64,000 nucleotides of DNA, taken from IMG/VR virus record IMGVR_UViG_3300042882_001046, positions 54,269 through 118,268 of that record. One strand, 5' to 3'. Every line of letters starts with the position of its first letter. The stretch's first letter is position 1. A program made the position numbers and the translations under genes. This document shows positions 6,242 to 31,254 of this stretch, piece after piece. The notes under the pieces are model-generated. The model did not search any database. It was not told the origin of the DNA and was given only the letters and a program-made list of their open reading frames with translations. Origin of the DNA: a virus.

Positions 6242-6664
6242 GGGGATGAAATGGTATCGATTGGCATTGTTGGGGATAAGTGGCACGTAGTCAGAATTCA
6301 TCTATGACTTTAATCTATGGTGAAGACAATTAGCTGGCAATACTTTTGCTAAGATGGCGACTTTAGGTTTAACTAGAGAAGCTTCTGTTGTAGCTGCCTA
6401 AGAGGTAGTCACAACCGTTACTCCAACCAAGTTGGTGTAACCTCGGGTCGATTAGGACGTTAACCTAGGAACAGAAGTCCAATATACGGGTCACAGGTCA
6501 GAGCTCGTTTAAAATAATTCTGAGACCAGGTTGTTTGTAAGTTTGGTTCCCACATACATCAAACTTAATATTTCGGAACGTTGAGAAACAACGTTGTACT
6601 AAACGTGTAGTCATTTATTGTCAAAGTGAGCAAGACGCGGGTTCGACTCCCGCCATCTCCACCA
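6242..6664 (+). ncRNA. ssrA: tmRNA
   Basis: Acceptor GGGGATG/CATCTCC with G3:U70, discriminator A and encoded CCA; T-arm GCGGG-TTCGACT-CCCGC; tag ORF 6336-6401 GNTFAKMATLGLTREASVVAA* after UAGCU resume context. Confidence 0.93.
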
Positions 6665-17674: not shown

Positions 17675-17676
17675 TA

Positions 17677-17701
17677 AAAAACCCACCATTAGGTGGGTTT
17701 T
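17677..17701. terminator. Bidirectional intrinsic terminator ending the tRNA region
   Basis: AAAACCCACC-ATTA-GGTGGGTTTT between convergent genes. Confidence 0.8.
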
Positions 17702-17723
17702 GTTTTTAAGGGAAAGTTATAAA

Positions 17724-17915
17724 TTATTTTACTTCTTCTACTTTCTCAACATCAGCTTTAACTGAATCAACTGCCACTGCAGATGAATCAACTTTAACTG
17801 AATCAACAGCTACTGCAGTTGAATCAACCGCTTCTGTAGATTTACCAGTCCCGTTTCCGCAAGATGCTAACATTGTTGTTGCTGCAATTGCAAATAGTGC
17901 TACGATTTTTTTCAT
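17724..17915 (-). CDS. Small Bacteroidota-type lipoprotein with AVDS/KVDS repeats
   Basis: MKKIVALFAIAATTMLASC lipobox; repeated D-S motifs; ATG 17915 preferred to track start. Confidence 0.75.
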   Translation of the reverse strand: MKKIVALFAIAATTMLASCGNGTGKSTEAVDSTAVAVDSVKVDSSAVAVDSVKADVEKVEEVK

Positions 17916-18031
17916 GTTTTTTTGTTTTTTGTTTGTTATGTATTTTATTAACTTATGAACCATAAATATATGAAGAATTATCTTATGTGTCAATTATTTT
18001 AAAAGTTTTTTTTTGTTAAAATTTTGTTATG

Positions 18032-18117
18032 CGGAGAGTGTTGGGCTCGAACCAACGCGGCTGTTACACCCTACCTGTTTAGCAAACAGGCCCCTTCACC
18101 AACTTGGGTAACCCTCC
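18032..18117 (-). tRNA. trnS: tRNA-Ser(GCT)
   Basis: Cloverleaf; anticodon arm CCTGT-TTGCTAA-ACAGG; long variable arm. Confidence 0.93.
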
Positions 18118-18456
18118 TTATTGTAATAATTGTATTAAATAATAAGATAATTTATATCCTGTAAACGCACCAAGAGCTGATGGTAATGGGAAAACAATCA
18201 TTTTACCTAAATCTGTAACGTATTTTGGTCTGTTAACAATCTTACCCATATAAAAGTAATATGTTAAGTACCCTAATAACACCGCTAAATCCGTTCTTGT
18301 TGCAATGAATACAACAATAGTCGCACCAATAAAACCAAAAGTAAAATTATCTCTAACTCCTTCCCAAATTTCAAATGTGGTAGCCTCTTTGTACTCTTTA
18401 ACAATTTTTTTAAACTTTGTTCTGTTTGTCTGTTTTTTTTTAATTTGTGATTCCAT
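18118..18456 (-). CDS. Membrane protein inside the tRNA array
   Basis: 112-aa ORF with hydrophobic helices filling the gap between two tRNAs. Confidence 0.65.
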   Translation of the reverse strand: MESQIKKKQTNRTKFKKIVKEYKEATTFEIWEGVRDNFTFGFIGATIVVFIATRTDLAVLLGYLTYYFYMGKIVNRPKYVTDLGKMIVFPLPSALGAFTGYKLSYYLIQLLQ

Positions 18457-18457
18457 G

Positions 18458-18531
18458 TTGGAATAGATGGATTCGAACCATCGACATCTACCGTATCAGG
18501 ATAGCGCTCTAACCAACTGAGCTATATTCCA
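18458..18531 (-). tRNA. trnI: tRNA-Ile(GAT)
   Basis: Cloverleaf; CTATC-CTGATAC-GGTAG. Confidence 0.92.
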
Positions 18532-18536
18532 ATGTG

Positions 18537-18706
18537 CTGTAAGGGAAGGAGTCGAACCTTCAAGAGGAGATTCAATTGATAACACAACGCTTGCAAGCTG
18601 GTGGTCTACCCCATATTATCAATCTATTTCTTTGTCCCCGCCCCCGAGACAGGAGGGTGCGTATGCCAAGGTCATAACTGAGACAACCTAATTTCGCCAC
18701 CTTACA
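18537..18706 (-). ncRNA. Oversized (170 nt) tRNA-like RNA with insertions in D-loop and variable arm
   Basis: Perfect acceptor TGTAAGG/CCTTACA, T-arm GAAGG-TTCGACT-CCTTC, Leu-like D-arm GCG...CGC. Confidence 0.75.
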
Positions 18707-18711
18707 ATTTG

Positions 18712-18798
18712 CGGAGGAACAGGGATTCGAACCCCAGATACCCTTTCGAGTATGCCAGTTTTCAAGACTGGTGCAATCAACCGCTCTGCCATTCCTCC
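18712..18798 (-). tRNA. trnS: tRNA-Ser(TGA)
   Basis: Cloverleaf; CCAGT-CTTGAAA-ACTGG; long variable arm. Confidence 0.93.
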
Positions 18799-18802
18799 AA
18801 AT

Positions 18803-18902
18803 AAAAGTGTTTTGGTCAACCACTCGCTACCCACCGCAGTATGACGATTCCCCCTGTGGTCATCGTACTTACGCCTAAGCCTTGTCCGTTGTAAACACTT
18901 TT
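18803..18902 (-). ncRNA. Structured inter-tRNA element
   Basis: 10-bp closing stem AAAAGTGTTT/AAACACTTTT. Confidence 0.45.
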
Positions 18903-18903
18903 G

Positions 18904-18977
18904 GGTGACTAACGGGAATCGAACCCGTGACAACTTGAACCACAATCAAGCGCTCTACCTACTGAGCTATAGACACC
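18904..18977 (-). tRNA. trnH: tRNA-His(GTG)
   Basis: G-1:C73; CTTGA-TTGTGGT-TCAAG. Confidence 0.9.
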
Positions 18978-18982
18978 ATATG

Positions 18983-19052
18983 TTGCGTGTATGAGGTTCG
19001 AACTCACTTGACCTTCCTTATGAGAGAAAGTTCTTTCCCACTAAGCCACGCA
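18983..19052 (-). tRNA. trnM: Atypical tRNA (CAT), probably elongator Met
   Basis: CTCATAA loop and normal T-arm; 6-bp acceptor and shortened acceptor/D junction. Confidence 0.6.
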
Positions 19053-19058
19053 GTTTAG

Positions 19059-19130
19059 TGGTTTTATTAGGACTCGAACCCAAACTCCGAAATCCGTAGT
19101 TTCGTGTGCTATCCATTACACCATAAAACC
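19059..19130 (-). tRNA. trnR: tRNA-Arg(ACG)
   Basis: CGAAA-CTACGGA-TTTCG. Confidence 0.92.
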
Positions 19131-19134
19131 GTTG

Positions 19135-19205
19135 TTGTCCCTCAGGGATTCGAACCCCAACTGGATGGACCAAAACCACCTGTACTACCGTTATACTAAA
19201 GGACA
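19135..19205 (-). tRNA. trnQ: tRNA-Gln(TTG)
   Basis: GGTGG-TTTTGGT-CCATC. Confidence 0.92.
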
Positions 19206-19213
19206 CTTTAGTG

Positions 19214-19293
19214 TGGGAGTGGAGGGATTCGAACCCCCAATGTCGACGACCACAGATTTACAGTCTGCTAAGCAACCGTTGCTCAACACTCCC
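19214..19293 (-). tRNA. trnY: tRNA-Tyr(GTA)
   Basis: GCAGA-CTGTAAA-TCTGT; long variable arm. Confidence 0.92.
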
Positions 19294-19296
19294 AAG

Positions 19297-19477
19297 TTAG
19301 GAAAGGAGAAGATGGTCGAGTGGACATCTCCTTTTACGATTGGCATTACTCAGGTGTATTTCTCCCAACTCCGATGATACCGACCAAAATACACTCTCAT
19401 GTCATAGGTACCACCATTCCCCAATCAACCTATAAAACGATAATAGAATGTCCCAGCCGTCTCCTTCTCTTATCTAA
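19297..19477 (-). ncRNA. 181-nt structured RNA with probable pseudoknot, family unknown
   Basis: 5'/3' purine-pyrimidine closing helix, GGACAT/ATGTCC, ATAGGT/ACCTAT, GTGTATTT/AAATACAC, loop GATTGG complementary to distal CCAATC. Confidence 0.6.
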
Positions 19478-19526
19478 CATACACTAACAGCTAAATACGG
19501 CTTGACTGATTATACTGTATGTTTTG

Positions 19527-19600
19527 CACGGGTGGAGAGGTTCGAACTCCCGACAACTGGTTTTGGAGACCAGTACTCTACCAAACTGAGCTACACCCGC
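19527..19600 (-). tRNA. trnW: tRNA-Trp(CCA)
   Basis: CTGGT-CTCCAAA-ACCAG. Confidence 0.93.
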
Positions 19601-19605
19601 TTATA

Positions 19606-19848
19606 TTACCTATACTTCCTGATAATCTTCATTATCTCTCCGATATCTGTAAGTTCCATCTTTTGTCCGACACGGATTGGATAGAATGCCACGGTAAATC
19701 CGTGGTTTCCACAAAAACGTTCGGTTACTCTTTTTCCATTAACTTTTTCAAGATAAATCCATGGAATGTTACCTGCGAATTCACATTTGATTCCCAGTTT
19801 GTCCATTCTTCTTCTGAAATCGTTTAATACTCTTGTGTCTGTTTCCAT
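19606..19848 (-). CDS. Hypothetical protein inside the tRNA array
   Basis: 80-aa ORF between trnC and trnW. Confidence 0.65.
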   Translation of the reverse strand: METDTRVLNDFRRRMDKLGIKCEFAGNIPWIYLEKVNGKRVTERFCGNHGFTVAFYPIRVGQKMELTDIGEIMKIIRKYR

Positions 19849-19862
19849 AAGTTTATTTTTTG

Positions 19863-19934
19863 AGGTCGAACCCAGAATCGAACTGGGGTAATTAGTTTTG
19901 CAGACTAACGCCTAAGCCGCTCGGCCACCCGACC
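19863..19934 (-). tRNA. trnC: tRNA-Cys(GCA)
   Basis: TTAGT-CTGCAAA-ACTAA; U73. Confidence 0.93.
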
Positions 19935-19940
19935 ATTGTT

Positions 19941-20174
19941 TTATTTAACCATATCAAAGTTAATCATATTCTCTGACATTAATTCACGAAGTTCATTTCT
20001 TATTTCCTGATATGCGTCATACTTGTCCTGTGGTAAATCATCGGAAGCATATTTAGTTTTCGCTCTCAATGATTGGTCCAAATCCCAAAGTATTGACCAC
20101 ATCTTCATTCCTTTAGTTGCCAAGTCGAAATCTTGTTGGTCCTCAGGTAAATTAAATTCTAAAACAGCTTTCAT
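19941..20174 (-). CDS. Hypothetical phage protein
   Basis: MKAVLEFNLPEDQQDF...; ATG 20174 preferred to track start. Confidence 0.65.
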   Translation of the reverse strand: MKAVLEFNLPEDQQDFDLATKGMKMWSILWDLDQSLRAKTKYASDDLPQDKYDAYQEIRNELRELMSENMINFDMVK

Positions 20175-20352
20175 TTTTTTTCTCTTTATATTTTTTACAT
20201 CTCTTTTTTGGTACTTCAACGTAATATGAACCCATAAACGATGAGAATACACCAACGTAGTTGGACCCAACCTCTTTTACATCATGGAGCACTGAACCCT
20301 CAAAAAGGTTGAAGAAGATGTCAGTACAGTCTTTTTTTGTTACAACTTTCAT
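20152..20352 (-). CDS. Hypothetical protein
   Basis: TATATTTG (20357-20364) 4 nt before ATG 20352. Confidence 0.6.
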   Translation of the reverse strand: MKVVTKKDCTDIFFNLFEGSVLHDVKEVGSNYVGVFSSFMGSYYVEVPKKRCKKYKEKKNESCFRI

Positions 20353-20390
20353 ATTACAAATATACACAATTTTATTTAATTTTTCTAATG

Positions 20391-20464
20391 TGACCCCGCC
20401 GAGATTCGAACTCGGGACTCCTTCATTAAAAGTGAAGTGCTCTAGCCAACTGAGCTACGAAGTC
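20391..20464 (-). tRNA. trnK: tRNA-Lys(TTT)
   Basis: CTTCA-CTTTTAA-TGAAG. Confidence 0.93.
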
Positions 20465-20470
20465 TTATTG

Positions 20471-20543
20471 TGGTAACGGTCAGAATCGAACTGACGACAC
20501 CTTGGTCTTCAGCCAAGTGCTCTACCAACTGAGCTACATCACC
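20471..20543 (-). tRNA. trnF: tRNA-Phe(GAA)
   Basis: CTTGG-CTGAAGA-CCAAG. Confidence 0.93.
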
Positions 20544-20548
20544 ATTTG

Positions 20549-20621
20549 TAGTCCCTGTAGGAATCGAACCTACGACATCTTGCATGTAAAACAAGCGCTC
20601 TCCCAACTGAGCTAAAGGACT
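20549..20621 (-). tRNA. trnV: tRNA-Val(TAC)
   Basis: CTTGT-TTTACAT-GCAAG. Confidence 0.92.
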
Positions 20622-20626
20622 GTTTG

Positions 20627-20700
20627 TACTCCGTACGGGGCTCGAACCCGTAATCTTCACCGTGAAAGGGTGACGACTTAACCAATTTGTCCAACGGAGC
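20627..20700 (-). tRNA. trnE: tRNA-Glu(TTC)
   Basis: TCACC-CTTTCAC-GGTGA. Confidence 0.93.
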
Positions 20701-20754
20701 AATTATTCAACAAAAATACGACCAATAAATCAAAGAACCAAAAAACATCAAAAT

Positions 20755-20787
20755 AAAAAACCCCGAACCTTTTTACGAGTTCGGGGT
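20755..20787 (-). terminator. Attenuator-type terminator upstream of tRNA array A
   Basis: ACCCCGAAC-N10-GTTCGGGGT followed by T-run; 5' arm complementary to AGTTCGG in leader ORF. Confidence 0.85.
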
Positions 20788-20820
20788 ATATAAAAAATTT
20801 AGTTTATTAATCTAAAAAAA

Positions 20821-20919
20821 TTATCCTATTTTGACATCCGAACTACATAATAGCATACGCTCATACCAACAAATCGATTGTTGTGTACTAAAGACCATAT
20901 GTTTAAATGTAGTTTTCAT
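20821..20919 (-). CDS. Leader peptide A (32 aa) MKTTFKHMVFSTQQSICWYERMLLCSSDVKIG
   Basis: Read by hand; sits between a consensus promoter and a terminator; codon content mirrors downstream tRNAs. Confidence 0.85.
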   Translation of the reverse strand: MKTTFKHMVFSTQQSICWYERMLLCSSDVKIG

Positions 20920-20937
20920 TGTTTCTTATATATAGTA

Positions 20938-20968
20938 CAAAGATACAAAAAAATCTTTGGGTGTCAAA
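20938..20968 (-). promoter_or_regulatory. Bacteroidota primary-sigma promoter for leader A
   Basis: TTTG(20968-20965)-N19-TATCTTTG(20945-20938). Confidence 0.8.
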
Positions 20969-20993
20969 TATTTTTTTTAACTATTTATAAAAG

Positions 20994-21413
20994 ATGAAAA
21001 CATTGAGACAAATCATTAAGGAAGAATTATTACTTGAAAAAAGAATCACTCAAGTTAATTCGTCTTTAGAAGTAGTATTCCTATTTGACGTAAACAGGAC
21101 CACTCACGCCTTTGATAGAGACACAAGAGATGATATTGAAGGGTATAATGTAAGACCGATTGTTAACGCTGAAATTAGAGAGATTATCAGTACAGTAAAA
21201 AAAGATATTGCCGAAAAAATAGTTTCAAGGGAAATTAACCCTGAAGTAGATTTTGTTGTAAAGTCCTTAAAATGGGAATTAGCCATGGCAATAACTCCTG
21301 TTCATATTGGAGGAACTTATTGGCAATTAATTATCAAAACAGTATTCAGAGAATCCAAATACAACCCTTTTAGAGTGGGTGAAAACCAATTGGTGATTTA
21401 CTCAGACATTTAA
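20994..21413 (+). CDS. Hypothetical, probable virion protein
   Basis: TATTTATA 4 nt before ATG; N-terminal IIKEELLLE. Confidence 0.65.
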   Translation: MKTLRQIIKEELLLEKRITQVNSSLEVVFLFDVNRTTHAFDRDTRDDIEGYNVRPIVNAEIREIISTVKKDIAEKIVSREINPEVDFVVKSLKWELAMAITPVHIGGTYWQLIIKTVFRESKYNPFRVGENQLVIYSDI

Positions 21414-21504
21414 AAAAAAAAAGGGTAACACTAGTATCTGAATCGTTCCCGTGTTACCCAGTTTGTAATTGAGCTTGTGTATCTAAATCGTGCTCCTCAA
21501 TCAC
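21412..21504 (-). ncRNA. Two-hairpin small RNA with duplicated loop motif ACGATTYAGATAC
   Basis: TATCTTTG (21509-21516); stems GTGATTGAG/CTCAATTAC and GGGTAACAC/GTGTTACCC; 11-nt U tail. Confidence 0.75.
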
Positions 21505-21543
21505 AATACAAAGATACAAAAATATTTCGTACCACAAAAAATA

Positions 21544-22254
21544 TTATCCCTGAATATTAAAATTAATCACACATCTGTGAGTTTTTCCGTAAAAAGGTTT
21601 AACCGAATGAACAATATCGTAAGGCCAAATTATTAACATCCCTTTCTTTGGTCTAATAAAGTAAGACATTCCCCTAACGTGAAATGTAAATACCCCACTA
21701 TATGGATGGTCATCAACTGGGTCTCCGTCAGATAGATAATAACCACCAGAAAAGTTTAAAGTTGTTTCTTCATTTGGTTGCCATCTACAATGATTATGAG
21801 CGTTATGTCCACGACCTTCAGTTGGATTATAATATTGCATCCAACTCTCAGTAATCATTGGTTTTCTGTTGTGTTCAAATCCAAGTTTGTCCAGCATCTC
21901 CATATAACCCAATTCTACCCTTTTTTTAATTTTCTTAACACATTCCTCATCTATATTAAGAAAATCGTTTGGCGGGGTCCAAAATCGACTACCAATGGGG
22001 TTATGTTCCGTTGGTTCCACCCACATGTCTTGCCTATTGTAGTTTACTTGATATGTAGATTGTCTTTGTTCGTCGTATTGTTCTGGTAACTCTTGACCCA
22101 TCAATTTTTGTTGGTCGGTTAGAGCATTAAAACCAAAATTATAAACTTCGTCTTGAAGTTCGTCATCTGTGAATACTTTCATAAACACAGGAATAGGTGC
22201 AAGATGAAAAAGATTCTCCTGACTTGTTTTAACTAATGGATTTTTTACGTACAT
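21544..22254 (-). CDS. Putative 2OG-Fe(II) oxygenase
   Basis: HNAHNH, SGGYYL, IWPYDIVHSVKP, RCVINFN. Confidence 0.7.
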   Translation of the reverse strand: MYVKNPLVKTSQENLFHLAPIPVFMKVFTDDELQDEVYNFGFNALTDQQKLMGQELPEQYDEQRQSTYQVNYNRQDMWVEPTEHNPIGSRFWTPPNDFLNIDEECVKKIKKRVELGYMEMLDKLGFEHNRKPMITESWMQYYNPTEGRGHNAHNHCRWQPNEETTLNFSGGYYLSDGDPVDDHPYSGVFTFHVRGMSYFIRPKKGMLIIWPYDIVHSVKPFYGKTHRCVINFNIQG

Positions 22255-22267
22255 AATTTAAATCTTG

Positions 22268-22348
22268 TACCCCAAGAGAGACTCGAACTCTCACGACCGA
22301 AGTCATTGGTTCCTAAGACCAACGCGGCTACCGTTACGCCATCGGGGT
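22268..22348 (-). tRNA. trnL: tRNA-Leu(TAG)
   Basis: TTGGT-CTTAGGA-ACCAA; variable arm. Confidence 0.92.
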
Positions 22349-22351
22349 GTG

Positions 22352-22443
22352 TCATTATCGCTTCAGCCACATCGGGAAAGGCGCCTCTCCCGCGTTGTTT
22401 AAGTGTGTAACTTGCGCCGTATCTCACTGAGGTACGATAATGA
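22352..22443 (-). ncRNA. Structured inter-tRNA element
   Basis: 9-bp closing stem TCATTATCG/CGATAATGA; inner hairpin CGGGAGAG-GCGC-CTTTCCCG. Confidence 0.5.
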
Positions 22444-22446
22444 TTG

Positions 22447-22520
<74 letters not shown>

Positions 22521-22524
22521 ATTG

Positions 22525-22610
22525 TACCGAGGGAGGGACTCGAACCCTCACGGCCGTTTACTGACCAAGGGATTTTAAGTCCCTCGTGGCTACCATTACA
22601 CCACCTCGGC
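22525..22610 (-). tRNA. trnL: tRNA-Leu(TAA)
   Basis: AGGGA-CTTAAAA-TCCCT; own promoter TATATTTG at 22620-22627. Confidence 0.93.
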
Positions 22611-22648
22611 ATTGTCTTACAAATATAACCTTTATGGAATCATAAATC

Positions 22649-22683
22649 AAAAAAAACCCCAAACTTTTTTTTTAGTTTGGGGT
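22649..22683 (-). terminator. Intrinsic terminator
   Basis: CCCCAAACT/AGTTTGGGG followed by T8. Confidence 0.75.
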
Positions 22684-22709
22684 CCTATTATATAAAGTTA
22701 TTACCTTTT

Positions 22710-23441
22710 TTATTGAGCATCAAACTCTTCTTCCCATAACGTATCAGAAGAATTTTCTTCTGTATTATAAGTGTGATTTAATTCAATTGTCATGTCATTG
22801 AAATTAAATACGAACTCTCCGTCTGACCCTTCATTAATTTCCCAACCACCATAATGACTTTCAAGTTGATTATAACACCAATCTTCAATTGTTGACGGAA
22901 CTGAATCACCATTTTCTTCAAATGAACTTTCAATATAACCAGAATCCCCCGAACCATTATATCTTAGAGTTAATATTCCATCTTGTGGAATTTCTAAATC
23001 AGATAGAACCCCATCTTTTTCCCATTCTTCAAAAATTTCTTGACCTTCTTCTTCTGACCATTCAGTCCCACTAGCGTCTCCTCTATCATACCAAGACCAA
23101 TAATGGTTAAATGAAATGTCTTTGTTTGCAGAATTAATACTAATCTCAAACTTTTGCCATGACATCGCATCAATATCTGGTGTCTCACTACTATATAATT
23201 CTTGGTCAGACGCATACTTCGTAATTTTTTGAAGTATCGGTATCAACCCTGACGGAACGTCCGCTCTCCAGTTATTGGAGAAATGTGTCATTTGATTCCA
23301 ATCTATATTATTATAGTTAAGTGTATCACCATAATCATCCATCTCGAATTCAAACTCACCGACTTCCATTCCGAGAGAGCTCAAATAATTACAAACTCTT
23401 CTCAGGTATTGTTTTTCTTCTGTTGTTAAAAGTTTTTCCAT
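22710..23441 (-). CDS. Acidic protein with DUF6878-like C-terminal region
   Basis: YNGSGDSGYIE and GGWEINEGSDGEF motifs (family name from memory). Confidence 0.55.
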   Translation of the reverse strand: MEKLLTTEEKQYLRRVCNYLSSLGMEVGEFEFEMDDYGDTLNYNNIDWNQMTHFSNNWRADVPSGLIPILQKITKYASDQELYSSETPDIDAMSWQKFEISINSANKDISFNHYWSWYDRGDASGTEWSEEEGQEIFEEWEKDGVLSDLEIPQDGILTLRYNGSGDSGYIESSFEENGDSVPSTIEDWCYNQLESHYGGWEINEGSDGEFVFNFNDMTIELNHTYNTEENSSDTLWEEEFDAQ

Positions 23442-23452
23442 ATAAATAAATA

Positions 23453-23806
23453 TCAGTCTTCAAACTCTAATTTCATTGTTTTTAACATCCATTGGGGTCT
23501 TTGATTTGACGAGATGTTACTAATCCACTCTTTGGCTGAAGGTATGTAATTATTACAATCTTCTTTTACGTGTTGTTCTCCAACATATCGGGTATAAACT
23601 GTTTTTCCGTCTGAGTTTAAGAACTCAGTTCCAAATCTTTTTTCCATTTCAAAAATTCCTTCACTATGATGTCTAAACATTCTATGAAGAGAATCTCCAA
23701 ACCAAGATTTGGTTTCATCTAACCATTCATGTAAATGAATGTAATCCTCAGGTTTTCCTCCAAACTTTTTGGCGGATGATTTTGCATGTAAATTTGGATG
23801 TGCCAT
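23453..23806 (-). CDS. DUF6915-like His-rich protein
   Basis: MAHPNLHAKSSAKKFGG...HRMFRHHSEGIF...HVKEDC (family name from memory). Confidence 0.65.
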   Translation of the reverse strand: MAHPNLHAKSSAKKFGGKPEDYIHLHEWLDETKSWFGDSLHRMFRHHSEGIFEMEKRFGTEFLNSDGKTVYTRYVGEQHVKEDCNNYIPSAKEWISNISSNQRPQWMLKTMKLEFED

Positions 23807-23808
23807 GA

Positions 23809-24042
23809 TTATTTAATTTGTGAGTTGTTTCTTCTTGCTTCCTCAGCTTCTTTGTAAACCCTAACCCATGTTAAAAATACATCAATAGGTGCTAAAATCC
23901 AACACATAATAATTAACGCCATACTCTCAAGACCTGGAGATATTCCAAGACCACCTGACATAACATCTCTGTTCCATTTTCTAATTGACATGATTACGCA
24001 GTAAATGAAACAAACAACGTAATACGACCAAAATAATTGCAT
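23809..24042 (-). CDS. Small membrane protein
   Basis: Two hydrophobic helices; ATG 24042 (track start overlaps trnA). Confidence 0.6.
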   Translation of the reverse strand: MQLFWSYYVVCFIYCVIMSIRKWNRDVMSGGLGISPGLESMALIIMCWILAPIDVFLTWVRVYKEAEEARRNNSQIK

Positions 24043-24057
24043 AAATAAAAGTTTTAG

Positions 24058-24130
24058 TGGAGAATGAGGGAATCGAACCCACGACAACTTGAATGCAAAT
24101 CAAGCGCTCTACCAACTGAGCTAATTCCCC
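24058..24130 (-). tRNA. trnA: tRNA-Ala(TGC)
   Basis: G3:U70; CTTGA-TTTGCAT-TCAAG. Confidence 0.93.
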
Positions 24131-24136
24131 TGTTTG

Positions 24137-24209
24137 AGCCTCCTGTCGGAATCGAACCAACGACCTACTGATTACAAATCAGTTGCTCTACCTGCTGAGC
24201 TAAGGAGGC
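24137..24209 (-). tRNA. trnT: tRNA-Thr(TGT)
   Basis: ACTGA-TTTGTAA-TCAGT. Confidence 0.93.
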
Positions 24210-24259
24210 ATTTGTGGGTGTATGCTCATCACATACTCATGGGTTCCCACAACCCGTTG

Positions 24260-24332
24260 AGCGGAAGACCAGGCTCGAACTGGCCACCCCCGACTTGGAA
24301 GGACGGTGCTCTACCAAATGAGCTACTTCCGC
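24260..24332 (-). tRNA. trnG: tRNA-Gly(TCC)
   Basis: CCGTC-CTTCCAA-GTCGG (one T-T mismatch); U73. Confidence 0.9.
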
Positions 24333-24337
24333 AATTT

Positions 24338-24413
24338 TGGCGGTCCCGACGGGATTCGAACCCGTATCTCGCACCGTGACAGGGTGGAATTGTAACCATT
24401 CAACCACGGGACC
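24338..24413 (-). tRNA. trnD: tRNA-Asp(GTC)
   Basis: CTGTCAC loop; the only tRNA here with encoded CCA. Confidence 0.92.
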
Positions 24414-24441
24414 GTGTGTGGGGAGTTTCACCCCAAACTTT

Positions 24442-24933
24442 TTAATTTGTTAAGATGTGTTGATGTTCTCCGATTACTCGTTTTAAACTACTAACATATC
24501 TCTTATCAGACGCATATACCCTTCCGAGTAGTGCAAGATACTGATTTTTTGTCAAATCGTCTTTACCTTTTAACATATAATCTTGCCATAAAAAGTAATC
24601 ATATACGCTAAGGTTCCAATCTGTATATTTTGAGTATCCGCTCTGAGTTTTACCAACTGAAGACGTTTCTCTTTTTGTTGGAACTCTCATTCCAAACAGA
24701 TTGTTTGCCGTTTTGAACAATTTTGATGTAAATGCTCCTGACTCTAACACAGCTTGTGCAAACACAATATCAGGAAATTTTATACCAAACTTAATTATCT
24801 GCTCGTACAATTCTTCTTTTGTCAACCTATCATCTTGTGTCTGATAAGTTGTTTGTACTTGCTTCTCTTGTGCTTTTGTTGTCATTGTTCCTAACAATAA
24901 CAACACAGTCAATAAGAATGTTTTTAACTTCAT
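24442..24933 (-). CDS. Glucosaminidase-domain (GH73-like) peptidoglycan hydrolase with signal peptide
   Basis: AQAVLESG, NNLFGM, YASDKRY motifs. Confidence 0.8.
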   Translation of the reverse strand: MKLKTFLLTVLLLLGTMTTKAQEKQVQTTYQTQDDRLTKEELYEQIIKFGIKFPDIVFAQAVLESGAFTSKLFKTANNLFGMRVPTKRETSSVGKTQSGYSKYTDWNLSVYDYFLWQDYMLKGKDDLTKNQYLALLGRVYASDKRYVSSLKRVIGEHQHILTN

Positions 24934-25013
24934 TTCTTTCTTTTTGTCTGTTTATGCTTCAGGATTACTCCATCCACGATACCACAACATTGGAAATTTT
25001 CCACCCACCTCAG

Positions 25014-25085
25014 CTGCTCCACCTGGGCTCGAACCAGGATAAAAGGATTAACAGTCCTCCGTAATAACCATTATACGATAGAGCA
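25014..25085 (-). tRNA. trnN: tRNA-Asn(GTT)
   Basis: GAGGA-CTGTTAA-TCCTT. Confidence 0.92.
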
Positions 25086-25122
25086 AAATTATAATCAAAT
25101 TTTCCAACAAAGGAAACTTTTG

Positions 25123-25196
25123 TCGGGATGGCTGGATTCGAACCAACGGCCTCCACGTCCCAAACGTGGCGCGATACCTGACTACGCTACATCCCG
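25123..25196 (-). tRNA. trnP: tRNA-Pro(TGG)
   Basis: CCACG-TTTGGGA-CGTGG. Confidence 0.93.
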
Positions 25197-25201
25197 TACA
25201 T

Positions 25202-25232
25202 AAAAAAACCCTGAAGTATTAGTTCAGGGTTT
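25202..25232 (-). terminator. Attenuator-type terminator 5 nt upstream of trnP
   Basis: AAACCCTGAA-N7-TTCAGGGTTT-TTTT; 5' arm and loop complementary to AGTTCAG in leader ORF. Confidence 0.88.
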
Positions 25233-25254
25233 AGATAATTGGCTATAATATTGT

Positions 25255-25353
25255 TTACCAACCACTCGCTTCTGAACTTACGCAAATAGTGCCCGCATCC
25301 CCATTAGGAGTTGTCGGTGTGTCTAAATTCGTATTTGTGTTCATAGTTTTCAT
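25255..25353 (-). CDS. Leader peptide B (32 aa) MKTMNTNTNLDTPTTPNGDAGTICVSSEASGW
   Basis: Read by hand; TATTTATT at 25367-25374; codon content mirrors downstream tRNAs. Confidence 0.85.
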   Translation of the reverse strand: MKTMNTNTNLDTPTTPNGDAGTICVSSEASGW

Positions 25354-25398
25354 AGTGCAATATTACAATAAATATATTTAAAAACCAAAAAATAAATA

Positions 25399-26181
25399 TT
25401 AGTTACTAAAACCTCTCAAATAAACATCATTTGTCATATTGAAATTAATCCTCATTGATGAGTTTGGATAAGTACTATAAACTCTATATTGACCCTGTGG
25501 AATTACATTCCCTGTATAATTAATCAAGTATGATGACAACTGAGTATTTGTGTTCAACACTGTTTGACTATTGTTAGCACTTGACACTATTCTTGTACCG
25601 TTTTTCGCATAATAACCAATTCTAGTTTGTCTTTTTGTATCATTATTCATTGCCGAGACAGGAATCAAAACTAAAACCCAAGCGTTATCATTAACAGTAT
25701 TTTTAGATATTTTTACTGTTGTAAAATTATATGCCATTTTAGGGTTACCGTGTTCATCAACTCCACCACTTACTTGTGGTATGTCAGCCTGAATAACTTG
25801 TGGTAACACACCATTAGTCCAAAATGGCATGTTTAAATAATTGTTTAAATCTCGGTAATTGGTATTTTGAATACTCACCATTGTCCAACAAGAGTAAAAT
25901 GGAACGCTTGTAGATTGTGGGTTTCTTGGAACTGAGTTTTTAAGGTAATTAACAATTAATGTTGTTTTAGCTTGCTTTTCAATAAAAACATACGCCTTCA
26001 AATTAGGTGTTGAACTTGTCGTAACCCTTAAATTAGGGTTCGTACTTGAAGTTGAGTTAAGTTCTTGGGATTGCTCAATTTTAGTTTTTTCGAAGTCTAC
26101 TCCAGTGATGTCTTCTTTAGAACAAGACACAACAAATACCGATAAGGTAAGGAATGATAATAATAATTGTTTGATTTTCAT
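25399..26181 (-). CDS. Hypothetical lipoprotein
   Basis: Lipobox VVSC followed by SKED. Confidence 0.7.
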   Translation of the reverse strand: MKIKQLLLSFLTLSVFVVSCSKEDITGVDFEKTKIEQSQELNSTSSTNPNLRVTTSSTPNLKAYVFIEKQAKTTLIVNYLKNSVPRNPQSTSVPFYSCWTMVSIQNTNYRDLNNYLNMPFWTNGVLPQVIQADIPQVSGGVDEHGNPKMAYNFTTVKISKNTVNDNAWVLVLIPVSAMNNDTKRQTRIGYYAKNGTRIVSSANNSQTVLNTNTQLSSYLINYTGNVIPQGQYRVYSTYPNSSMRINFNMTNDVYLRGFSN

Positions 26182-26191
26182 GATTGTTTGT

Positions 26192-26473
26192 TTAAATGTA
26201 TTTTTTAAAAATTGTTTCTAAGGTGTCTTCATCTTCCCTACTTATAACATGAAATTTTTGAGATAACTTATCCATTTTCTCTAAAAATTCATCTTCTAAA
26301 ATAGATGTTTTTGGTTTACCATTTTTATCAGTTTGTATTTGAGACAACACTGATTTAGGTAAATGGTTTTCTTCAACTAACCCTTCAATTAATTCTTTAA
26401 TTTCTCTTGGGTCACAGGCCGTAACAAATTCATACGGGTCAATGTCGATTTCTTCTACACAAAATTCAGGCAT
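26192..26473 (-). CDS. Hypothetical protein
   Basis: 93-aa ORF in operon-like spacing. Confidence 0.65.
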   Translation of the reverse strand: MPEFCVEEIDIDPYEFVTACDPREIKELIEGLVEENHLPKSVLSQIQTDKNGKPKTSILEDEFLEKMDKLSQKFHVISREDEDTLETIFKKYI

Positions 26474-26498
26474 AATTATTTTTTTTTTAATAGTTTAG

Positions 26499-26572
26499 TG
26501 GACCAGCCTGGGCTCGAACCAGGGACCTTCACATTATGAGTGTGTTGCTCTAACCAACTGAGCTACAAGTCC
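26499..26572 (-). tRNA. trnI: tRNA(CAT), probably Ile2 (lysidine type)
   Basis: CTCATAA loop; Ile-like acceptor and D-arm; own promoter TATCTTTG at 26582-26589. Confidence 0.8.
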
Positions 26573-26637
26573 AATTTGATACAAAGATAAACAATAAATT
26601 TGATTTTGGAAATTTTTTTGTGATATTTATAGATATT

Positions 26638-26739
26638 ATGACAGACAAAAATATAACGTGTCTTTTGGGAACTAACCAAAAATATGAGAACTCGGGCGAT
26701 TTGAGACGTGGAAAACCTCGAACCATAAACTATTGCTAA
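26638..26739 (+). CDS. Candidate 33-aa ORF MTDKNITCLLGTNQKYENSGDLRRGKPRTINYC
   Basis: TATTTATA 6 nt before ATG; terminator 26756-26783 downstream. Confidence 0.45.
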   Translation: MTDKNITCLLGTNQKYENSGDLRRGKPRTINYC

Positions 26740-26755
26740 ATCTGTAGTATAATAT

Positions 26756-26783
26756 AAAGGGGTCGACTAAATTGACCCCTTTT
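26756..26783 (+). terminator. Intrinsic terminator
   Basis: AAAGGGGTCGA/TTGACCCCTTT hairpin. Confidence 0.75.
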
Positions 26784-26822
26784 GTTTTTAATAAAAATAA
26801 TATATCTTTGTAAAAAATTTTA

Positions 26823-27314
26823 GTGATGAGCACTGTATTGGTATTAAATTTTGACTACACTCCGTTAAACACAACTAGTGTTTGGAGGGGGTTTGTGTTA
26901 GTTGATAAAGGAAAGGCAGAAATTGTAAAATCAGACGAAAATCCGATTGTTGCAGGATATAATACTTATGTACGTCCACTTATTATTAGATTACTGAAAT
27001 ATATCAAACATCGTTCAAGGACATTAAGGGCAAACAGAAGTCGAATATATAAAAGAGACGGATATGAGTGTGTTTATTGTGGGTCAAAAAAAGAGTTGAC
27101 CTTAGACCACGTATTACCCAAATCAAGAGGTGGGACAAATGAATGGACTAACCTTGTTACGTCTTGTATGAAATGTAATCGTAAAAAAGCAGATAGAACA
27201 CCAGATGAGGCCAAAATGAACATGAAATCTAAACCATACATTCCACAAATTATGTACGAAGACAAAACTTTATTGAATGTTTGGAATGCGTATCAAGAAT
27301 CATTCATTTCTTAA
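26823..27314 (+). CDS. HNH endonuclease (McrA-like)
   Basis: RDGYECVYCG...TLDHVLPKSRGG...NLVTSCMKCNRKK. Confidence 0.92.
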   Translation: MMSTVLVLNFDYTPLNTTSVWRGFVLVDKGKAEIVKSDENPIVAGYNTYVRPLIIRLLKYIKHRSRTLRANRSRIYKRDGYECVYCGSKKELTLDHVLPKSRGGTNEWTNLVTSCMKCNRKKADRTPDEAKMNMKSKPYIPQIMYEDKTLLNVWNAYQESFIS

Positions 27315-27331
27315 AAATAAAACCTATAATT

Positions 27332-27652
27332 ATGAGTAATATGTCAGACAAATCATTGAGAATTACAATTGTTATCCTTGGATTAATTCTTTGCTGGGGA
27401 ACTGTTATGTACAGTAAACAAGAACAAAAATTAAAAGAAAAAGAATTAAAAATTGAGGTGTTTAGTGGCGGAGATATTTCTAAAGTTCAAACTATGGATT
27501 CATTACAAAATGTAATTGATTCTTTAGAGGTTGAAATTTTCCCATGTCAAGTTGAGCTTGGAAGATATCAAATCGCATATGAAATTTTTAAGGAGAGAAA
27601 TCCAAAAGCCGCGTCACAATACGGTGACATAATATCACAAGAAACAGAATAA
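27332..27652 (+). CDS. Hypothetical membrane-anchored protein
   Basis: N-terminal hydrophobic helix. Confidence 0.6.
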   Translation: MSNMSDKSLRITIVILGLILCWGTVMYSKQEQKLKEKELKIEVFSGGDISKVQTMDSLQNVIDSLEVEIFPCQVELGRYQIAYEIFKERNPKAASQYGDIISQETE

Positions 27653-27664
27653 AAATAAAATAAA

Positions 27665-27970
27665 ATGCAAGATTCAAATTACACAAACCCAGAACAATCA
27701 GGTCAGGGACAAAACCCTCAAGACCTTATTAACGCATCATTAATTTTTGCCAGAGCTTTAGGTTTAATTCTTAAAGAAGGTGAAGGTATTGTTGTCGACA
27801 TCAAAGGAGACATTAATTTAGGAGAAGACGTAAAAAAAGTTATCGTTTTTGAATATCAAAACCAAGTTCACATATATAAGTGTGAAGAAGACCTTGAAGA
27901 AGGGACCGCGGTAAATATGGACCAAAAAAATGAGGGTCCTGAAGTTGTGGAACCAACCGAAGAGGTATAA
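27665..27970 (+). CDS. Hypothetical protein
   Basis: 101-aa ORF. Confidence 0.6.
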   Translation: MQDSNYTNPEQSGQGQNPQDLINASLIFARALGLILKEGEGIVVDIKGDINLGEDVKKVIVFEYQNQVHIYKCEEDLEEGTAVNMDQKNEGPEVVEPTEEV

Positions 27971-27992
27971 TTTTTTTAAAAACAAATTTTAA

Positions 27993-29660
27993 ATGAGGGT
28001 ATTAGGGTTTTCAGTAGGCCACGATAAAGGAGCGGTTATTATTGAAGATGGGAAAGTTATTGTGGGTATAACACAAGAAAGAATTTCTCGTGTTAAACAT
28101 GATGGAGCACATCAAGGAGGACTTATACCTTTTGAGTCAATAAATTATTGTCTAAACTCAATTGGTATTACTTATAAAGAAATTGACCTTTTTGTTTATA
28201 GTACAACGGAGCTTGAGGATAAAACAGCTGCGGATTTTTTCAGAAAATATAATGACATTAGTTACGATAGATTATTTTTTATACCTCACCATTTAGCACA
28301 CGCTTATTCAACATTCTTTAGTTCAGGATTTGATGACGCTGCGGTTATTGTTGCCGACGCGTCAGGTAGTATATTAAACTTCAAAAATAAATTACATTTA
28401 TGGTATGAAGTTGACCGTACGGGATTGAACCCTGATGAAGATTGGACAGAAGGAATTTCAATATATCATTTTAAGAAAAATGAATATAATGAAGTTTATA
28501 AAAAATGGATAAAATATCCTGTACCTATTGATACTAATGAAGGTGTGTCGGTTGGTACCGTATATTCACAAGGTTCTTTACAGTTAATCTATGAACCAAA
28601 TGAACATACTTGGCCTGCAGGTAAATTAATGGGACTGGCATCTTATGCGGATGATGAAATTGTAAAAGAAGCCCCTGAATATGTTCAAGATTTAGGTGAT
28701 GATATCTATATTCCCAATAACGCAATATACCCAAAAGTTACTTGGGGGTCTGATTTCTTTTCAAGAGCATGTGTTGCGGGAATATATCAAAGAGAACAAG
28801 AAAGAGCATCCTTAATTTTAGCAAAAATCGCAAAAGATAAAACAGGTTCAGAAAATGTATGTGTTGCGGGTGGTTCTTTTTTGAATTGTAATTCTAATGA
28901 AAGAATTTTAAATTCAGGTTTATATGAAAATTGTTATTTCATTCCGCCAAGCGATGATAGTGGAATTCCATTAGGTTGTGCTTGGTTTGCATATCAAAAA
29001 TTAACCGATATTTCGGAAGTAGAACAATTAAGCCCTTATCTTGGTAAATCATACAGTAAAAACGATGTTGTTGAAGCACTTAACGAGTATCCAGGTTTAA
29101 AGTATACTGAATACGATAATTTTGATTTACTAATCAATGAAATTAGTTATTGGTTAACACAAAATAGAGTTATTGGGTGGTTTCAAGGAGGTTCGGAGAT
29201 TGGTCCAAGAGCGTTAGGTAATCGTTCTATATTGGCATCTCCAATTAAGTCATGGATGACTGGTCATATAAACTCAGACATAAAGAAAAGAGAGTGGTAT
29301 AGACCTTTTGCACCTGCAGTATTATTTGAGCATCAATCAGAAGTTTTTGAATCTGATGTATATTCACCTTACATGTTGTTGACAACAACAGTTAAAGAAG
29401 ATTGGATAAATAAAATACCAGCCGTAGTTCATATTGATAATTCTGCAAGACATCAATCGGTTACCGAAAAAAATAACCCTAAATTCTATTCTTTGATTAA
29501 AAAATTCTACGAAAAAACTAATGTTCCTGTTTTATTGAACACAAGTTTTAACGGACCAAAAGAACCTATTGTAGAAACACCTAAAGAAGCAATTAATACA
29601 TTCTTAGAAAACAATTTAGACTACTTGGTCATCAATAATTTTATTATCTCCAAAAATTAA
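27993..29660 (+). CDS. Carbamoyltransferase (CmcH/NodU/TobZ family) 1
   Basis: HD, HHLAHA, DASG, GKLMGLA, EIGPRALGNRSIL, RPFAP, NTSFN. Confidence 0.92.
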   Translation: MRVLGFSVGHDKGAVIIEDGKVIVGITQERISRVKHDGAHQGGLIPFESINYCLNSIGITYKEIDLFVYSTTELEDKTAADFFRKYNDISYDRLFFIPHHLAHAYSTFFSSGFDDAAVIVADASGSILNFKNKLHLWYEVDRTGLNPDEDWTEGISIYHFKKNEYNEVYKKWIKYPVPIDTNEGVSVGTVYSQGSLQLIYEPNEHTWPAGKLMGLASYADDEIVKEAPEYVQDLGDDIYIPNNAIYPKVTWGSDFFSRACVAGIYQREQERASLILAKIAKDKTGSENVCVAGGSFLNCNSNERILNSGLYENCYFIPPSDDSGIPLGCAWFAYQKLTDISEVEQLSPYLGKSYSKNDVVEALNEYPGLKYTEYDNFDLLINEISYWLTQNRVIGWFQGGSEIGPRALGNRSILASPIKSWMTGHINSDIKKREWYRPFAPAVLFEHQSEVFESDVYSPYMLLTTTVKEDWINKIPAVVHIDNSARHQSVTEKNNPKFYSLIKKFYEKTNVPVLLNTSFNGPKEPIVETPKEAINTFLENNLDYLVINNFIISKN

Positions 29661-29661
29661 T

Positions 29662-31254
29662 ATGAGTTCAATTTATTCTTTTTTTGCGGGTTCACATAGT
29701 GCAACATCATCATTAATCATTGATGGTGAAATAAAATATGTTATTGAGGAAGAGAGATTAAGTAGAATCAAAGCAGGAGATAAATACGAATCATTTCCAA
29801 ATTTATCGTCATCCAAAATTGTTGAATTATCTGGTTTACAAATAAAAGATGCGGACTATAGAATAATGGTAGAGCCAGTACCTGATTTGTATGCAGATGA
29901 ACTTACAAATGGTAAATATGAAAGAGTTAGTCACCACGACTCACATTGTTACGGTTCATATTTTACAAGTGGAATGGACGGAAAAGTTATGACAATATCC
30001 TATGATGGTGGAGGTGATAAGTCAGTTATGAAAATTTACCTATGTGAAAATGGTAAAATGACATTACTTAAAAGTTTGGATTATTCAACCTTTGGAAGTT
30101 TATCACATCTTTGGGGATTTTCTACTACAGGTATTTTAGGGGTTGGTGAGAACGGTGCATCAATTTGGAAAATTTGTAAAGATGAAGGTAAATTAATGGG
30201 TATGGCGGCGGACGGATATTACGATGAAAACATTATTAATATGTTAAAGTCCGTTATAAAATATAAAGATTTAAAATTTAGTCCATCAACAACAGGAGAA
30301 AGAACTAAATTTTTAATGGACTCATTACGATTACAAGGTGCCTTTGATACCAAAGAACAACGAGAAGTTTTTTCATATAATTTACAACATTATACAAACA
30401 AAATGTTTGTTGAGTTTTTAACTGACCTAAACAAACTTTACCCTGAGTATAGAAAATTTGCGTTCTCGGGTGGACTTTTTGCAAACGTAAAGTTGAACCA
30501 AAAGATAAATGAATTAGATTTTGTTGATGAGATTTTTGTTTATCCCCCAATGGGTGATGAAGGACTTCCATTAGGTGCCTGTATTAAAAAAGCTGTGGAG
30601 TTGGGTGAAATAACAAAACCAATTAAGTTAAAAAATGTGTTTTTTGGTATTGAATACACAAATGAAGAAGTGGACAACATATCAAAAGATTATGACTTCA
30701 ATAAGTCACTATATGTACCTGAAGAAATTGCATCAGACATCGATAATGGTGGTATTATAGGATGGTTTCAGGATAGATTTGAACATGGTCCAAGAGCATT
30801 AGGCGCACGAAGTATATTGGTTAAACCAACCGAAATTGGTACGCACCGAGTTCTAAATGAAAGACTTAAGAGGTATGAAATAATGCCATTTGCACCAATT
30901 GTAATGGAAGAATATTTTGACGAAATTTTTTATCCTTCCAAATCAAAATACTCTTCTGAATTTATGACAATTTGTTATTCCACAAGAGAATCTTGGATAA
31001 ACAAAATTCCCGCAGTTATTCAAAAATCCGATAAAACGGCAAGACCTCAGATTGTTGTAAAAAATAAAAACAAAAAGTTTTGGGAAATATTAAACGCGTA
31101 TTATAAAATTTCAGGAATCCCTGTTTTATTGAATACGTCATTTAATTCTCACAACGAACCAATTATAGATTCTCCACAACAAGCGTTTGATACGTTAAAA
31201 AAAGGAATCATAGATAAATTAATTATAGGAGATTATGTTTATTATCGTAAATAA
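29662..31254 (+). CDS. Carbamoyltransferase (CmcH/NodU/TobZ family) 2
   Basis: EERLSR, HHDSH, DGGG, EGKLMGMA, EHGPRALGARSIL, NTSFN. Confidence 0.92.
   Translation: MSSIYSFFAGSHSATSSLIIDGEIKYVIEEERLSRIKAGDKYESFPNLSSSKIVELSGLQIKDADYRIMVEPVPDLYADELTNGKYERVSHHDSHCYGSYFTSGMDGKVMTISYDGGGDKSVMKIYLCENGKMTLLKSLDYSTFGSLSHLWGFSTTGILGVGENGASIWKICKDEGKLMGMAADGYYDENIINMLKSVIKYKDLKFSPSTTGERTKFLMDSLRLQGAFDTKEQREVFSYNLQHYTNKMFVEFLTDLNKLYPEYRKFAFSGGLFANVKLNQKINELDFVDEIFVYPPMGDEGLPLGACIKKAVELGEITKPIKLKNVFFGIEYTNEEVDNISKDYDFNKSLYVPEEIASDIDNGGIIGWFQDRFEHGPRALGARSILVKPTEIGTHRVLNERLKRYEIMPFAPIVMEEYFDEIFYPSKSKYSSEFMTICYSTRESWINKIPAVIQKSDKTARPQIVVKNKNKKFWEILNAYYKISGIPVLLNTSFNSHNEPIIDSPQQAFDTLKKGIIDKLIIGDYVYYRK

Follow-up and report, generated by a model that had tools for sequence, protein, structure and literature searches.

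The attenuators of the trp, his, thr, and leu operons each combine a short ORF rich in the codons that are sensed with mutually exclusive RNA helices (1:2, 2:3, and 3:4), the last of which is an intrinsic terminator. Multivalent sensing has precedents in the thr leader, which responds to Thr and Ile, and in the ilvGMEDA leader, which responds to Leu, Val, and Ile, and the pheST attenuator of E. coli is a case of leader-peptide attenuation of a component of the decoding machinery. T-box riboswitches also report the state of a tRNA through competition between a terminator and an antiterminator. They bind the uncharged tRNA directly, without translation, control synthetase and amino acid genes, and are typical of Firmicutes. 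In large phages, tRNA clusters such as the T4 tRNA region are expressed as precursor transcripts from promoters that lie upstream, and processing follows. To our knowledge, such clusters have not been described with a leader ORF or a terminator that senses translation, and the regulation of phage tRNA genes is essentially unknown. The role of phage tRNA sets is itself debated, with codon bias, late-gene demand, and escape from tRNA-cleaving defenses all under discussion.

Here we describe two related units that, judged by their sequence, resemble classical leader-peptide attenuation and in which the new element is the target, a set of tRNA genes. Both lie in a 64,000-nucleotide stretch of DNA (the window) taken from a 118-kb lake-water virus record in IMG/VR. 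The record is ~39% complete by the CheckV estimate, which makes a jumbo phage its probable source. There are 23 tRNA genes in the window, all on the minus strand, and a tmRNA gene on the plus strand. Array B consists of six tRNA genes and an endolysin-like ORF, and array A (positions 18031 to 20700, minus strand) comprises 13 tRNAs for 12 amino acids, with tRNA-Glu first. The features of the two units that precede these arrays are listed in Table 1. We place the probability that leader B is a ribosome-sensing (leader-peptide) transcription attenuator feeding a phage tRNA array at about 70%.

Unit B shares with the amino acid operon attenuators both the short ORF rich in codons to be sensed and the predicted set of exclusive helices with a 3:4 intrinsic terminator. 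The operon attenuators control biosynthetic enzymes, whereas units A and B precede tRNA genes; 3' of leader B there are six tRNAs and the endolysin-like ORF, with no gene for biosynthesis, transport, or aminoacylation. Classical leaders use codon runs, whereas leader B samples six amino acids and leader A 12 to 13, most of them just once or twice. Unit B also differs from the classical attenuators in that its antiterminator includes both segment 2 and the stop codon, segment 1 lies beside the start codon, and the element is phage borne. The pheST attenuator senses a single amino acid through a Phe run, controls a synthetase, and is cellular, unlike units A and B. The competition between terminator and antiterminator that we propose for unit B is like that of T-boxes, but unit B has no T-box match and contains an ORF with signs of coding, and the host-type promoters of the window point to a Bacteroidota host. 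A literature search found no leader-peptide attenuator of tRNA genes.

Table 1. Positions of the predicted elements of unit B, array B, and unit A, numbered from the first letter of the window
Feature	Positions	Strand	Details
Leader B promoter-like region	25358..25389	-	TTTG 25389..25386, 20-nt spacer, TAATATTG 25365..25358
Leader B ORF	25353..25255	-	32 codons plus stop
Segment 1 (UGAAC)	25339..25343	-	Codons 4-5; predicted partner, segment 2
Core sensor codons 13-22 (PTTPNGD[A/G]GT), putative	25288..25317	-	P T T P N G D A G T in the window
Segment 2 (AGUUCAG)	25272..25278	-	Codons 26-28; predicted alternative partners, segment 1 or 3
Inner hairpin, predicted	25233..25266	-	Around the stop codon (25257..25255); stacks within the antiterminator
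Intrinsic terminator, putative	25202..25232	-	Hairpin 25232..25206; 10-bp stem, 7-nt loop; seven-U tract 25208..25202
Segment 3 (CUGAACU)	25221..25227	-	3' part of the terminator 5' arm plus first loop base
Array B	24057..25196	-	Pro, Asn, endolysin-like ORF, Asp, Gly, Thr, Ala
tRNA-Pro(tgg)	25196..25122	-	Array B
tRNA-Asn	25085..25013	-	Array B
Endolysin-like ORF	24933..24442	-	163 aa; between tRNA-Asn and tRNA-Asp
tRNA-Asp	24413..24338	-	Array B
tRNA-Gly	24332..24259	-	Array B
tRNA-Thr	24209..24136	-	Array B
tRNA-Ala	24130..24057	-	Array B
Unit A	20711..20968	-	Paralogue of unit B; followed by tRNA-Glu at 20700
Unit A host-type promoter	20968..20938	-
Leader A ORF	20919..20821	-
Unit A segment 1	20914..20907	-
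Unit A segment 2	20848..20838	-
Unit A segment 3	20784..20778	-
Unit A terminator, putative	20787..20760	-
Unit A second host-type promoter	20742..20711	-

Leader composition, conservation, and tRNA repertoire

An earlier note on this DNA had stated that array B encodes Pro, Asn, Asp, Gly, Thr, and Ala, that 17 of the 18 residues at leader B positions 5 to 22 come from this set with all six present, and that Phe, His, Gln, Tyr, and Arg are missing from the entire peptide. Recounting bore out each of these statements; the endolysin-like ORF follows tRNA-Asn in the array. Within the core, codons 13 to 22, the amino acids are exactly the six of array B. Among 14,586 18-residue stretches taken from the window's long ORFs, none contained at least 17 array B residues, and leader B was the sole ORF to pass the array B composition test among the 222 small ORFs (25 to 60 aa) of the window. 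In leader A, the 12 amino acids of array A all occur within the conserved part, which is matched by only 5 of 14,418 21-residue stretches, and across the same 222 small ORFs the array-composition tests were passed by leaders A and B alone. When all 18,564 possible 12/6 splits of 18 amino acids were compared, no other split told leader B and leader A apart as well as the genomic one, and the residue classes of the two leaders differed with a P value of 1.3e-6 (Fisher's test). Chance is excluded as the source of the leader B composition. The match at the codon level is imperfect: the conserved GGC/GGT at codon 21 would not normally be read by tRNA-Gly(tcc), and the GTC codon of leader A is a poor fit to tRNA-Val(tac). 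Leader B of more distant relatives also has Leu, His, Ile, Phe, Arg, and Lys in its first third; what stays constant in them is the ten-residue core, which in all recovered variants changes at codon 20 alone (Ala or Gly).

The first relatives of the unit were located through neighboring proteins, without use of the leader, and the count was then raised to 36 distinct units by pattern scans of viral and metagenome contigs. Because the search pattern demanded the core, its constancy in the metagenome matches is by construction, and only the first, neighbor-protein relatives (from IMG/VR) give an unbiased view of it. In these relatives, codons 12 to 22 vary at synonymous third positions save for codon 20 (Ala or Gly), and the ORF, the terminator, and tRNA-Pro were all kept in every case. 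All 36 variants, which come from freshwater phages that are uncultured, have an intact ORF. Wherever the contig extends, tRNA-Pro is found 57 to 95 nt 3' of the stop codon (38 distinct leader-plus-downstream sequences from 66 loci), and the unit and tRNA-Pro remain together where a different gene lies upstream. Indels within the ORF measure 3, 6, or 9 nt, and those 3' of the stop codon 1 to 3 nt; a Leu codon changes from TTA to CTT in relatives and still encodes Leu. By these patterns of substitution, the leader B ORF looks translated.

Outside this group of phages, tblastn searches of cultured phage genomes with both leader peptides returned no matches, and DNA similarity searches of the same genomes returned tRNA matches only. 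Three matches to the core pattern in bacterial and archaeal genomes were discarded as chance, with neither an ORF nor a tRNA. In a more distant phage, whose lipoprotein homologue is 46% identical, no leader or terminator was found near the tRNAs. Two variations on the unit were seen among the relatives. At one locus (L060:4979-5138), leader B has a 9-nt in-frame duplication of codons 1 to 3. At two others (L031 and L055), ~37 additional bases lie between the U-tract and tRNA-Pro, and in L031 the sequence of tRNA-Pro is unlike that of the window, which together suggest that the first tRNA was replaced.

We also compared the leaders with the tRNA repertoires of the relatives. Across eight distinct leader/array combinations, every array A amino acid was present in the conserved part of leader A, with the exception of Ser in one. 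The same held, by manual inspection, for a relative with a reduced repertoire, in which array A consists of Glu, Phe, Cys, Trp, Tyr, Met, Gln, and His and lacks tRNA-Lys, tRNA-Val, and tRNA-Arg(acg). There, neither leader has Lys codons and the conserved part of leader A has no Val or Arg codons, although Ile and Ser codons remain in the absence of those tRNAs from the array. For leader B, five of the six types with Gly at codon 20 have no tRNA-Ala in the array, and Ala is kept at this codon in two leader types whose arrays also lack tRNA-Ala, so that the association is a trend only, with exceptions in both directions. A strict rule by which a leader codon occurs if and only if its tRNA does was rejected: relatives without the TCG codon were predicted to be without tRNA-Ser(tga) too, which proved right for one genome but wrong for a sister contig; one contig has tRNA-Ser(tga) yet no TCR codon at that leader position. 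The leaders follow the tRNA repertoire partly, which supports the attenuator reading without deciding it, as the events are few and phylogenetically linked.

RNA pairings and promoters of units B and A

The hairpin, the end of the U-tract, and the gap of five bases before tRNA-Pro proved to be located as the earlier note had described. The hairpin has a predicted energy of -11.8 kcal/mol and is paired in 100% of the 36 variants, and we regard it as a putative terminator. Upstream of it, segment 2 can pair with either of two partners. The 1:2 helix is paired in 96% of cells, compared with 3 to 45% in slid controls, and its last pair is CG in 20, UA in 6, and UG in 6. It spans only 5 bp, and segment 1, at codons 4 and 5, lies off the core codons, so a ribosome stalled later would leave segment 1 unmasked. 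For the 2:3 antiterminator, six pairs are paired in 100% of the 36 variants, one of them as GC in 29, AU in 6, and GU in 1, and the seventh is AU in 16, GC in 6, UA in 1, and unpaired in 13. When the terminator 3' arm is withheld, the antiterminator fold reaches -15.8 kcal/mol, and all variants fold into 2:3, enclosing the hairpin around the stop codon. This inner hairpin is paired in 74% of cells, with changes on both sides at two pairs. Segment 2 lies inside the ORF rather than beyond its stop codon, and its nucleotides are kept while the first of its codons varies among Ser, Arg, Cys, and Asp. One position changes in step across segments 1, 2, and 3, as predicted for a segment that alternates between two partners; the covariation has few independent changes behind it. 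By these predicted pairings, unit B resembles in layout a classical four-segment attenuator with 1:2, 2:3, and 3:4 helices.

An Rfam cmscan of positions 17000 to 28000, at E values of up to 1, gave no match in 25200 to 25400 or in 20750 to 20970, and thus neither a leader family nor a T-box at unit B or A. Matches to Phe_leader at 17653 to 17730 in that region were rejected, being far below threshold and falling on a bidirectional terminator hairpin. The core of leader B also contains a small hairpin of four base pairs (CUCC-UAAU-GGGG, 25299..25310, minus strand). The third bases of codons 15 and 18, both synonymous sites, covary within it in 36 of 36 variants, with U paired with G or A in 21 and A paired with U in 15. 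It could be a pause site for polymerase or ribosome, or scaffolding.

Unit A, the paralogue, has a longer 1:2 helix of 7 to 9 bp that joins codons 2 to 5 with codons 24 to 27. It is paired in 90% of cells and the 2:3 helix in 96%, with one 2:3 pair present as GC in 10, GU in 3, and AU in 3, and with the terminator 3' arm withheld the unit A variants likewise fold into 2:3. The main out-of-set residues of leader A are two Thr codons, which are explained by RNA pairing because they form segment 1. Identical 3' tails (segment 2 up to the stop codon) are attached to A leaders in some genomes and to B leaders in others, and the 5' sensor parts stay array specific despite the shared tails. Such exchange between A and B attenuators implies recombination of the expression platform and suggests that the putative sensor (5') and expression platform (3') are separate modules. 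Tails common to both families were seen at loci L004, L005, L015, and L053, among others. The runs Val-Phe, Ser-Ile, and Cys-Trp-Tyr in leader A (20821 to 20919) mirror the order of the tRNA genes in array A, on the same strand, which may be a coincidence.

Matches to the Bacteroidota-type promoter consensus (TTTG, 18 to 21 nt, TAnnTTTG) number 18 in the window, compared with 3.6 expected. Exact matches include the promoter of leader A, a second promoter of the same unit between its terminator and tRNA-Glu, and the promoter of the tRNA-Leu array, and these host-type promoters point to a Bacteroidota host. A -7 box of this type is also present ~10 nt upstream of tRNA-Met. Upstream of leader B, TAATATTG differs from the host-type consensus by one mismatch and ends 4 nt 5' of the AUG. 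The predicted 5' untranslated region is therefore almost nil, which would make the mRNA leaderless or close to it, and no Shine-Dalgarno sequence is present. The promoter-like region is kept in close relatives and diverges further in distant ones, and it reads as a degenerate host-type (Bacteroidota-like) promoter. The earlier note had instead contrasted TATTTATT, the motif that leader B follows, with the host-type promoter of leader A and had suggested that the two attenuators may act at different infection stages. This motif is not enriched in the window (14 occurrences, 15 expected), and a longer conserved form, TATATTTATTG, was also rejected as a phage promoter motif for lack of enrichment. 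Neither a separate, phage-specific promoter class nor the distinction in timing therefore has support.

With regard to how tRNA-Pro is transcribed, readthrough of the terminator, which the 5-nt gap had been taken to make obligatory, is the simplest source in the window itself. In many B relatives, however, the terminator is separated from tRNA-Pro by a TAnnTTTG box that the window's clade has lost, and because of this host-type -7 box, obligate readthrough would be confined to that clade. The TAnnTTTG boxes in the B relatives and in unit A suggest an ancestral layout of promoter, leader, terminator, second promoter, and tRNAs. Across the family, then, the attenuator probably supplements a basal tRNA promoter and is not the only route to the tRNAs.

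The leader region was represented in assembled contigs from four freshwater metatranscriptome runs. One contig of 1,497 nt runs unbroken from 25378 across the terminator, tRNA-Pro, and tRNA-Asn into tRNA-Asp, where it ends at an adapter. The three others cover the leader and end at 25240 to 25276, which is 8 to 44 nt before the stem at 25232. Such contigs define neither single transcripts nor transcript ends and could include DNA carry-over, and the one that bridges the terminator gives the attenuator reading weak support and does not show regulation. Unit A had no coverage among the RNA-library contigs.

Proposed regulation and competing explanations

From the layout of unit B, we infer translation, termination, stalling, and stalling-dependent readthrough, which would be connected as follows. 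Transcription would begin at the weak host-type promoter immediately 5' of the AUG. A ribosome that translates the leader without delay would cover segment 2 and the stop-codon hairpin, allowing the 3:4 terminator to form and stopping the transcript 5 nt short of tRNA-Pro. Stalling of the ribosome within the core, whose codons are only for Pro, Thr, Asn, Gly, Asp, and Ala, would leave segment 2 free to pair with the terminator 5' arm, and polymerase would then enter the Pro-Asn-(endolysin-like)-Asp-Gly-Thr-Ala genes. If no ribosome were present, segment 1 would hold segment 2 and the terminator would again form. The outcome would be negative feedback, in which scarcity of the decoders encoded by an array turns that array on, and unit A would act likewise for the 13-tRNA array headed by tRNA-Glu. 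The endolysin-like ORF, embedded between tRNA-Asn and tRNA-Asp, would be coregulated with array B.

A broader interpretation, to which we give even odds, is that the two units form a homeostat for tRNA supply. Each array would be gated by a mini-ORF written in the array's own amino acid "alphabet," such that a shortage of any decoder of the array stalls the leader ribosome and activates the array that supplies it. The trigger could be a mismatch in codon usage, late-infection demand, or a host anticodon-nuclease defense. If this interpretation is true, tRNA genes would for the first time be known to be under the control of a leader-peptide attenuator, which would also be the most multivalent one known. 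Attenuation of this kind would then cover RNA genes and the sensing of 6 to 13 amino acids together. An element that senses how well exactly the amino acids of the tRNAs 3' of it are decoded would provide a direct, testable tie between tRNA demand and tRNA supply, as well as a compact natural sensor of multi-tRNA availability for Bacteroidota. The order of a short array-matched ORF, a terminator, and a tRNA can also serve as a search signature in tRNA-rich phages.

Leader B might instead be a self-contained gene for a small peptide, which we think unlikely. Either the 32-residue product or its ten-residue core would be functional, the hairpin would end the gene's own transcript, and tRNA expression would depend on separate promoters or on leakiness of the terminator. 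The peptide order is indeed strongly conserved with synonymous changes, and the promoter box 3' of the terminator in unit A and many B relatives means that the leader could stand alone; the three RNA-library contigs that end shortly before the stem (by 8 to 44 nt) fit a self-terminating transcript as well. What such a gene leaves unexplained is that two paralogous peptides divide the amino acids as the two arrays do, that Lys, Val, and Arg codons are lost where those tRNAs are missing, and that segment 2 is conserved in its nucleotides amid codon change and covaries with segment 1 as well as with the arm of the terminator. Nor was a homologue of the peptide found in cultured phages. A RiPP precursor or signaling peptide, with a conserved N-terminal part and a variable C-terminal part, was considered and dropped, as RNA-level constraint acts on the variable part; the nearby candidate modifying enzymes examined were the carbamoyltransferase-like ORFs only.

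The conservation could conversely be that of an untranslated structured RNA, either a small RNA or an element for the 5' processing or stability of the tRNA precursor, with the ORF being incidental. High nucleotide conservation, several covarying helices (one of them at synonymous core sites), a nearly absent 5' untranslated region, and the lack of a Shine-Dalgarno sequence would all be compatible with this idea. We nevertheless consider it improbable, given that indels are all multiples of three within the ORF and not downstream of it, that all 36 variants keep the ORF intact, that a Leu codon is swapped for a nonadjacent synonymous codon, and that the composition matches the arrays; there is also no Rfam family at E values of up to 1. 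As for an ORF that arose by chance in the stretch from the upstream lipoprotein gene's terminator to tRNA-Pro, the AT-rich genome does yield 222 small ORFs of 25 to 60 aa in the window, and a third terminator (22686..22653) precedes the tRNA-Leu array with no ORF. The composition statistics, the 36 conserved variants, and the persistence of the unit after replacement of the upstream gene effectively refute this explanation, to which we attach almost no weight. Attenuation by a translated leader is the reading that we prefer.

Other genes in the window

The 163-aa ORF of array B resembles an endolysin or glucosaminidase and has a signal peptide, and its place within the array is kept in relatives. 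In array A, the gap between tRNA-His and tRNA-Arg (18983 to 19052, minus strand) contains a tRNA-like match of 24.7 bits, below the cutoff of 29, and it looks like a decayed tRNA because some relatives have tRNA-Met(cat) there. Most relatives have a tRNA-Met between Tyr and Gln that is missing from the window. The tRNA-Leu array has no leader ORF. The terminator before it, at 22653 to 22686, is bidirectional and lies directly after a 243-aa ORF and 42 nt upstream of tRNA-Leu, with a perfect host-type promoter between the two.

The tmRNA (6242 to 6664, plus strand) is phage encoded, has a predicted tag of 21 residues, and shares the genome with the proposed ribosome-stalling leaders. Also on the plus strand are genes for a Lon-like ATP-dependent protease (1590 to 3605), a carbamoyltransferase confirmed by PHROGs (29662 to 31254), and a thymidylate synthase (44490 to 45722), which are auxiliary genes typical of large phages. 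Adjoining the carbamoyltransferase gene is a second carbamoyltransferase-like ORF (27993 to 29660, plus strand), called from its own sequence alone.
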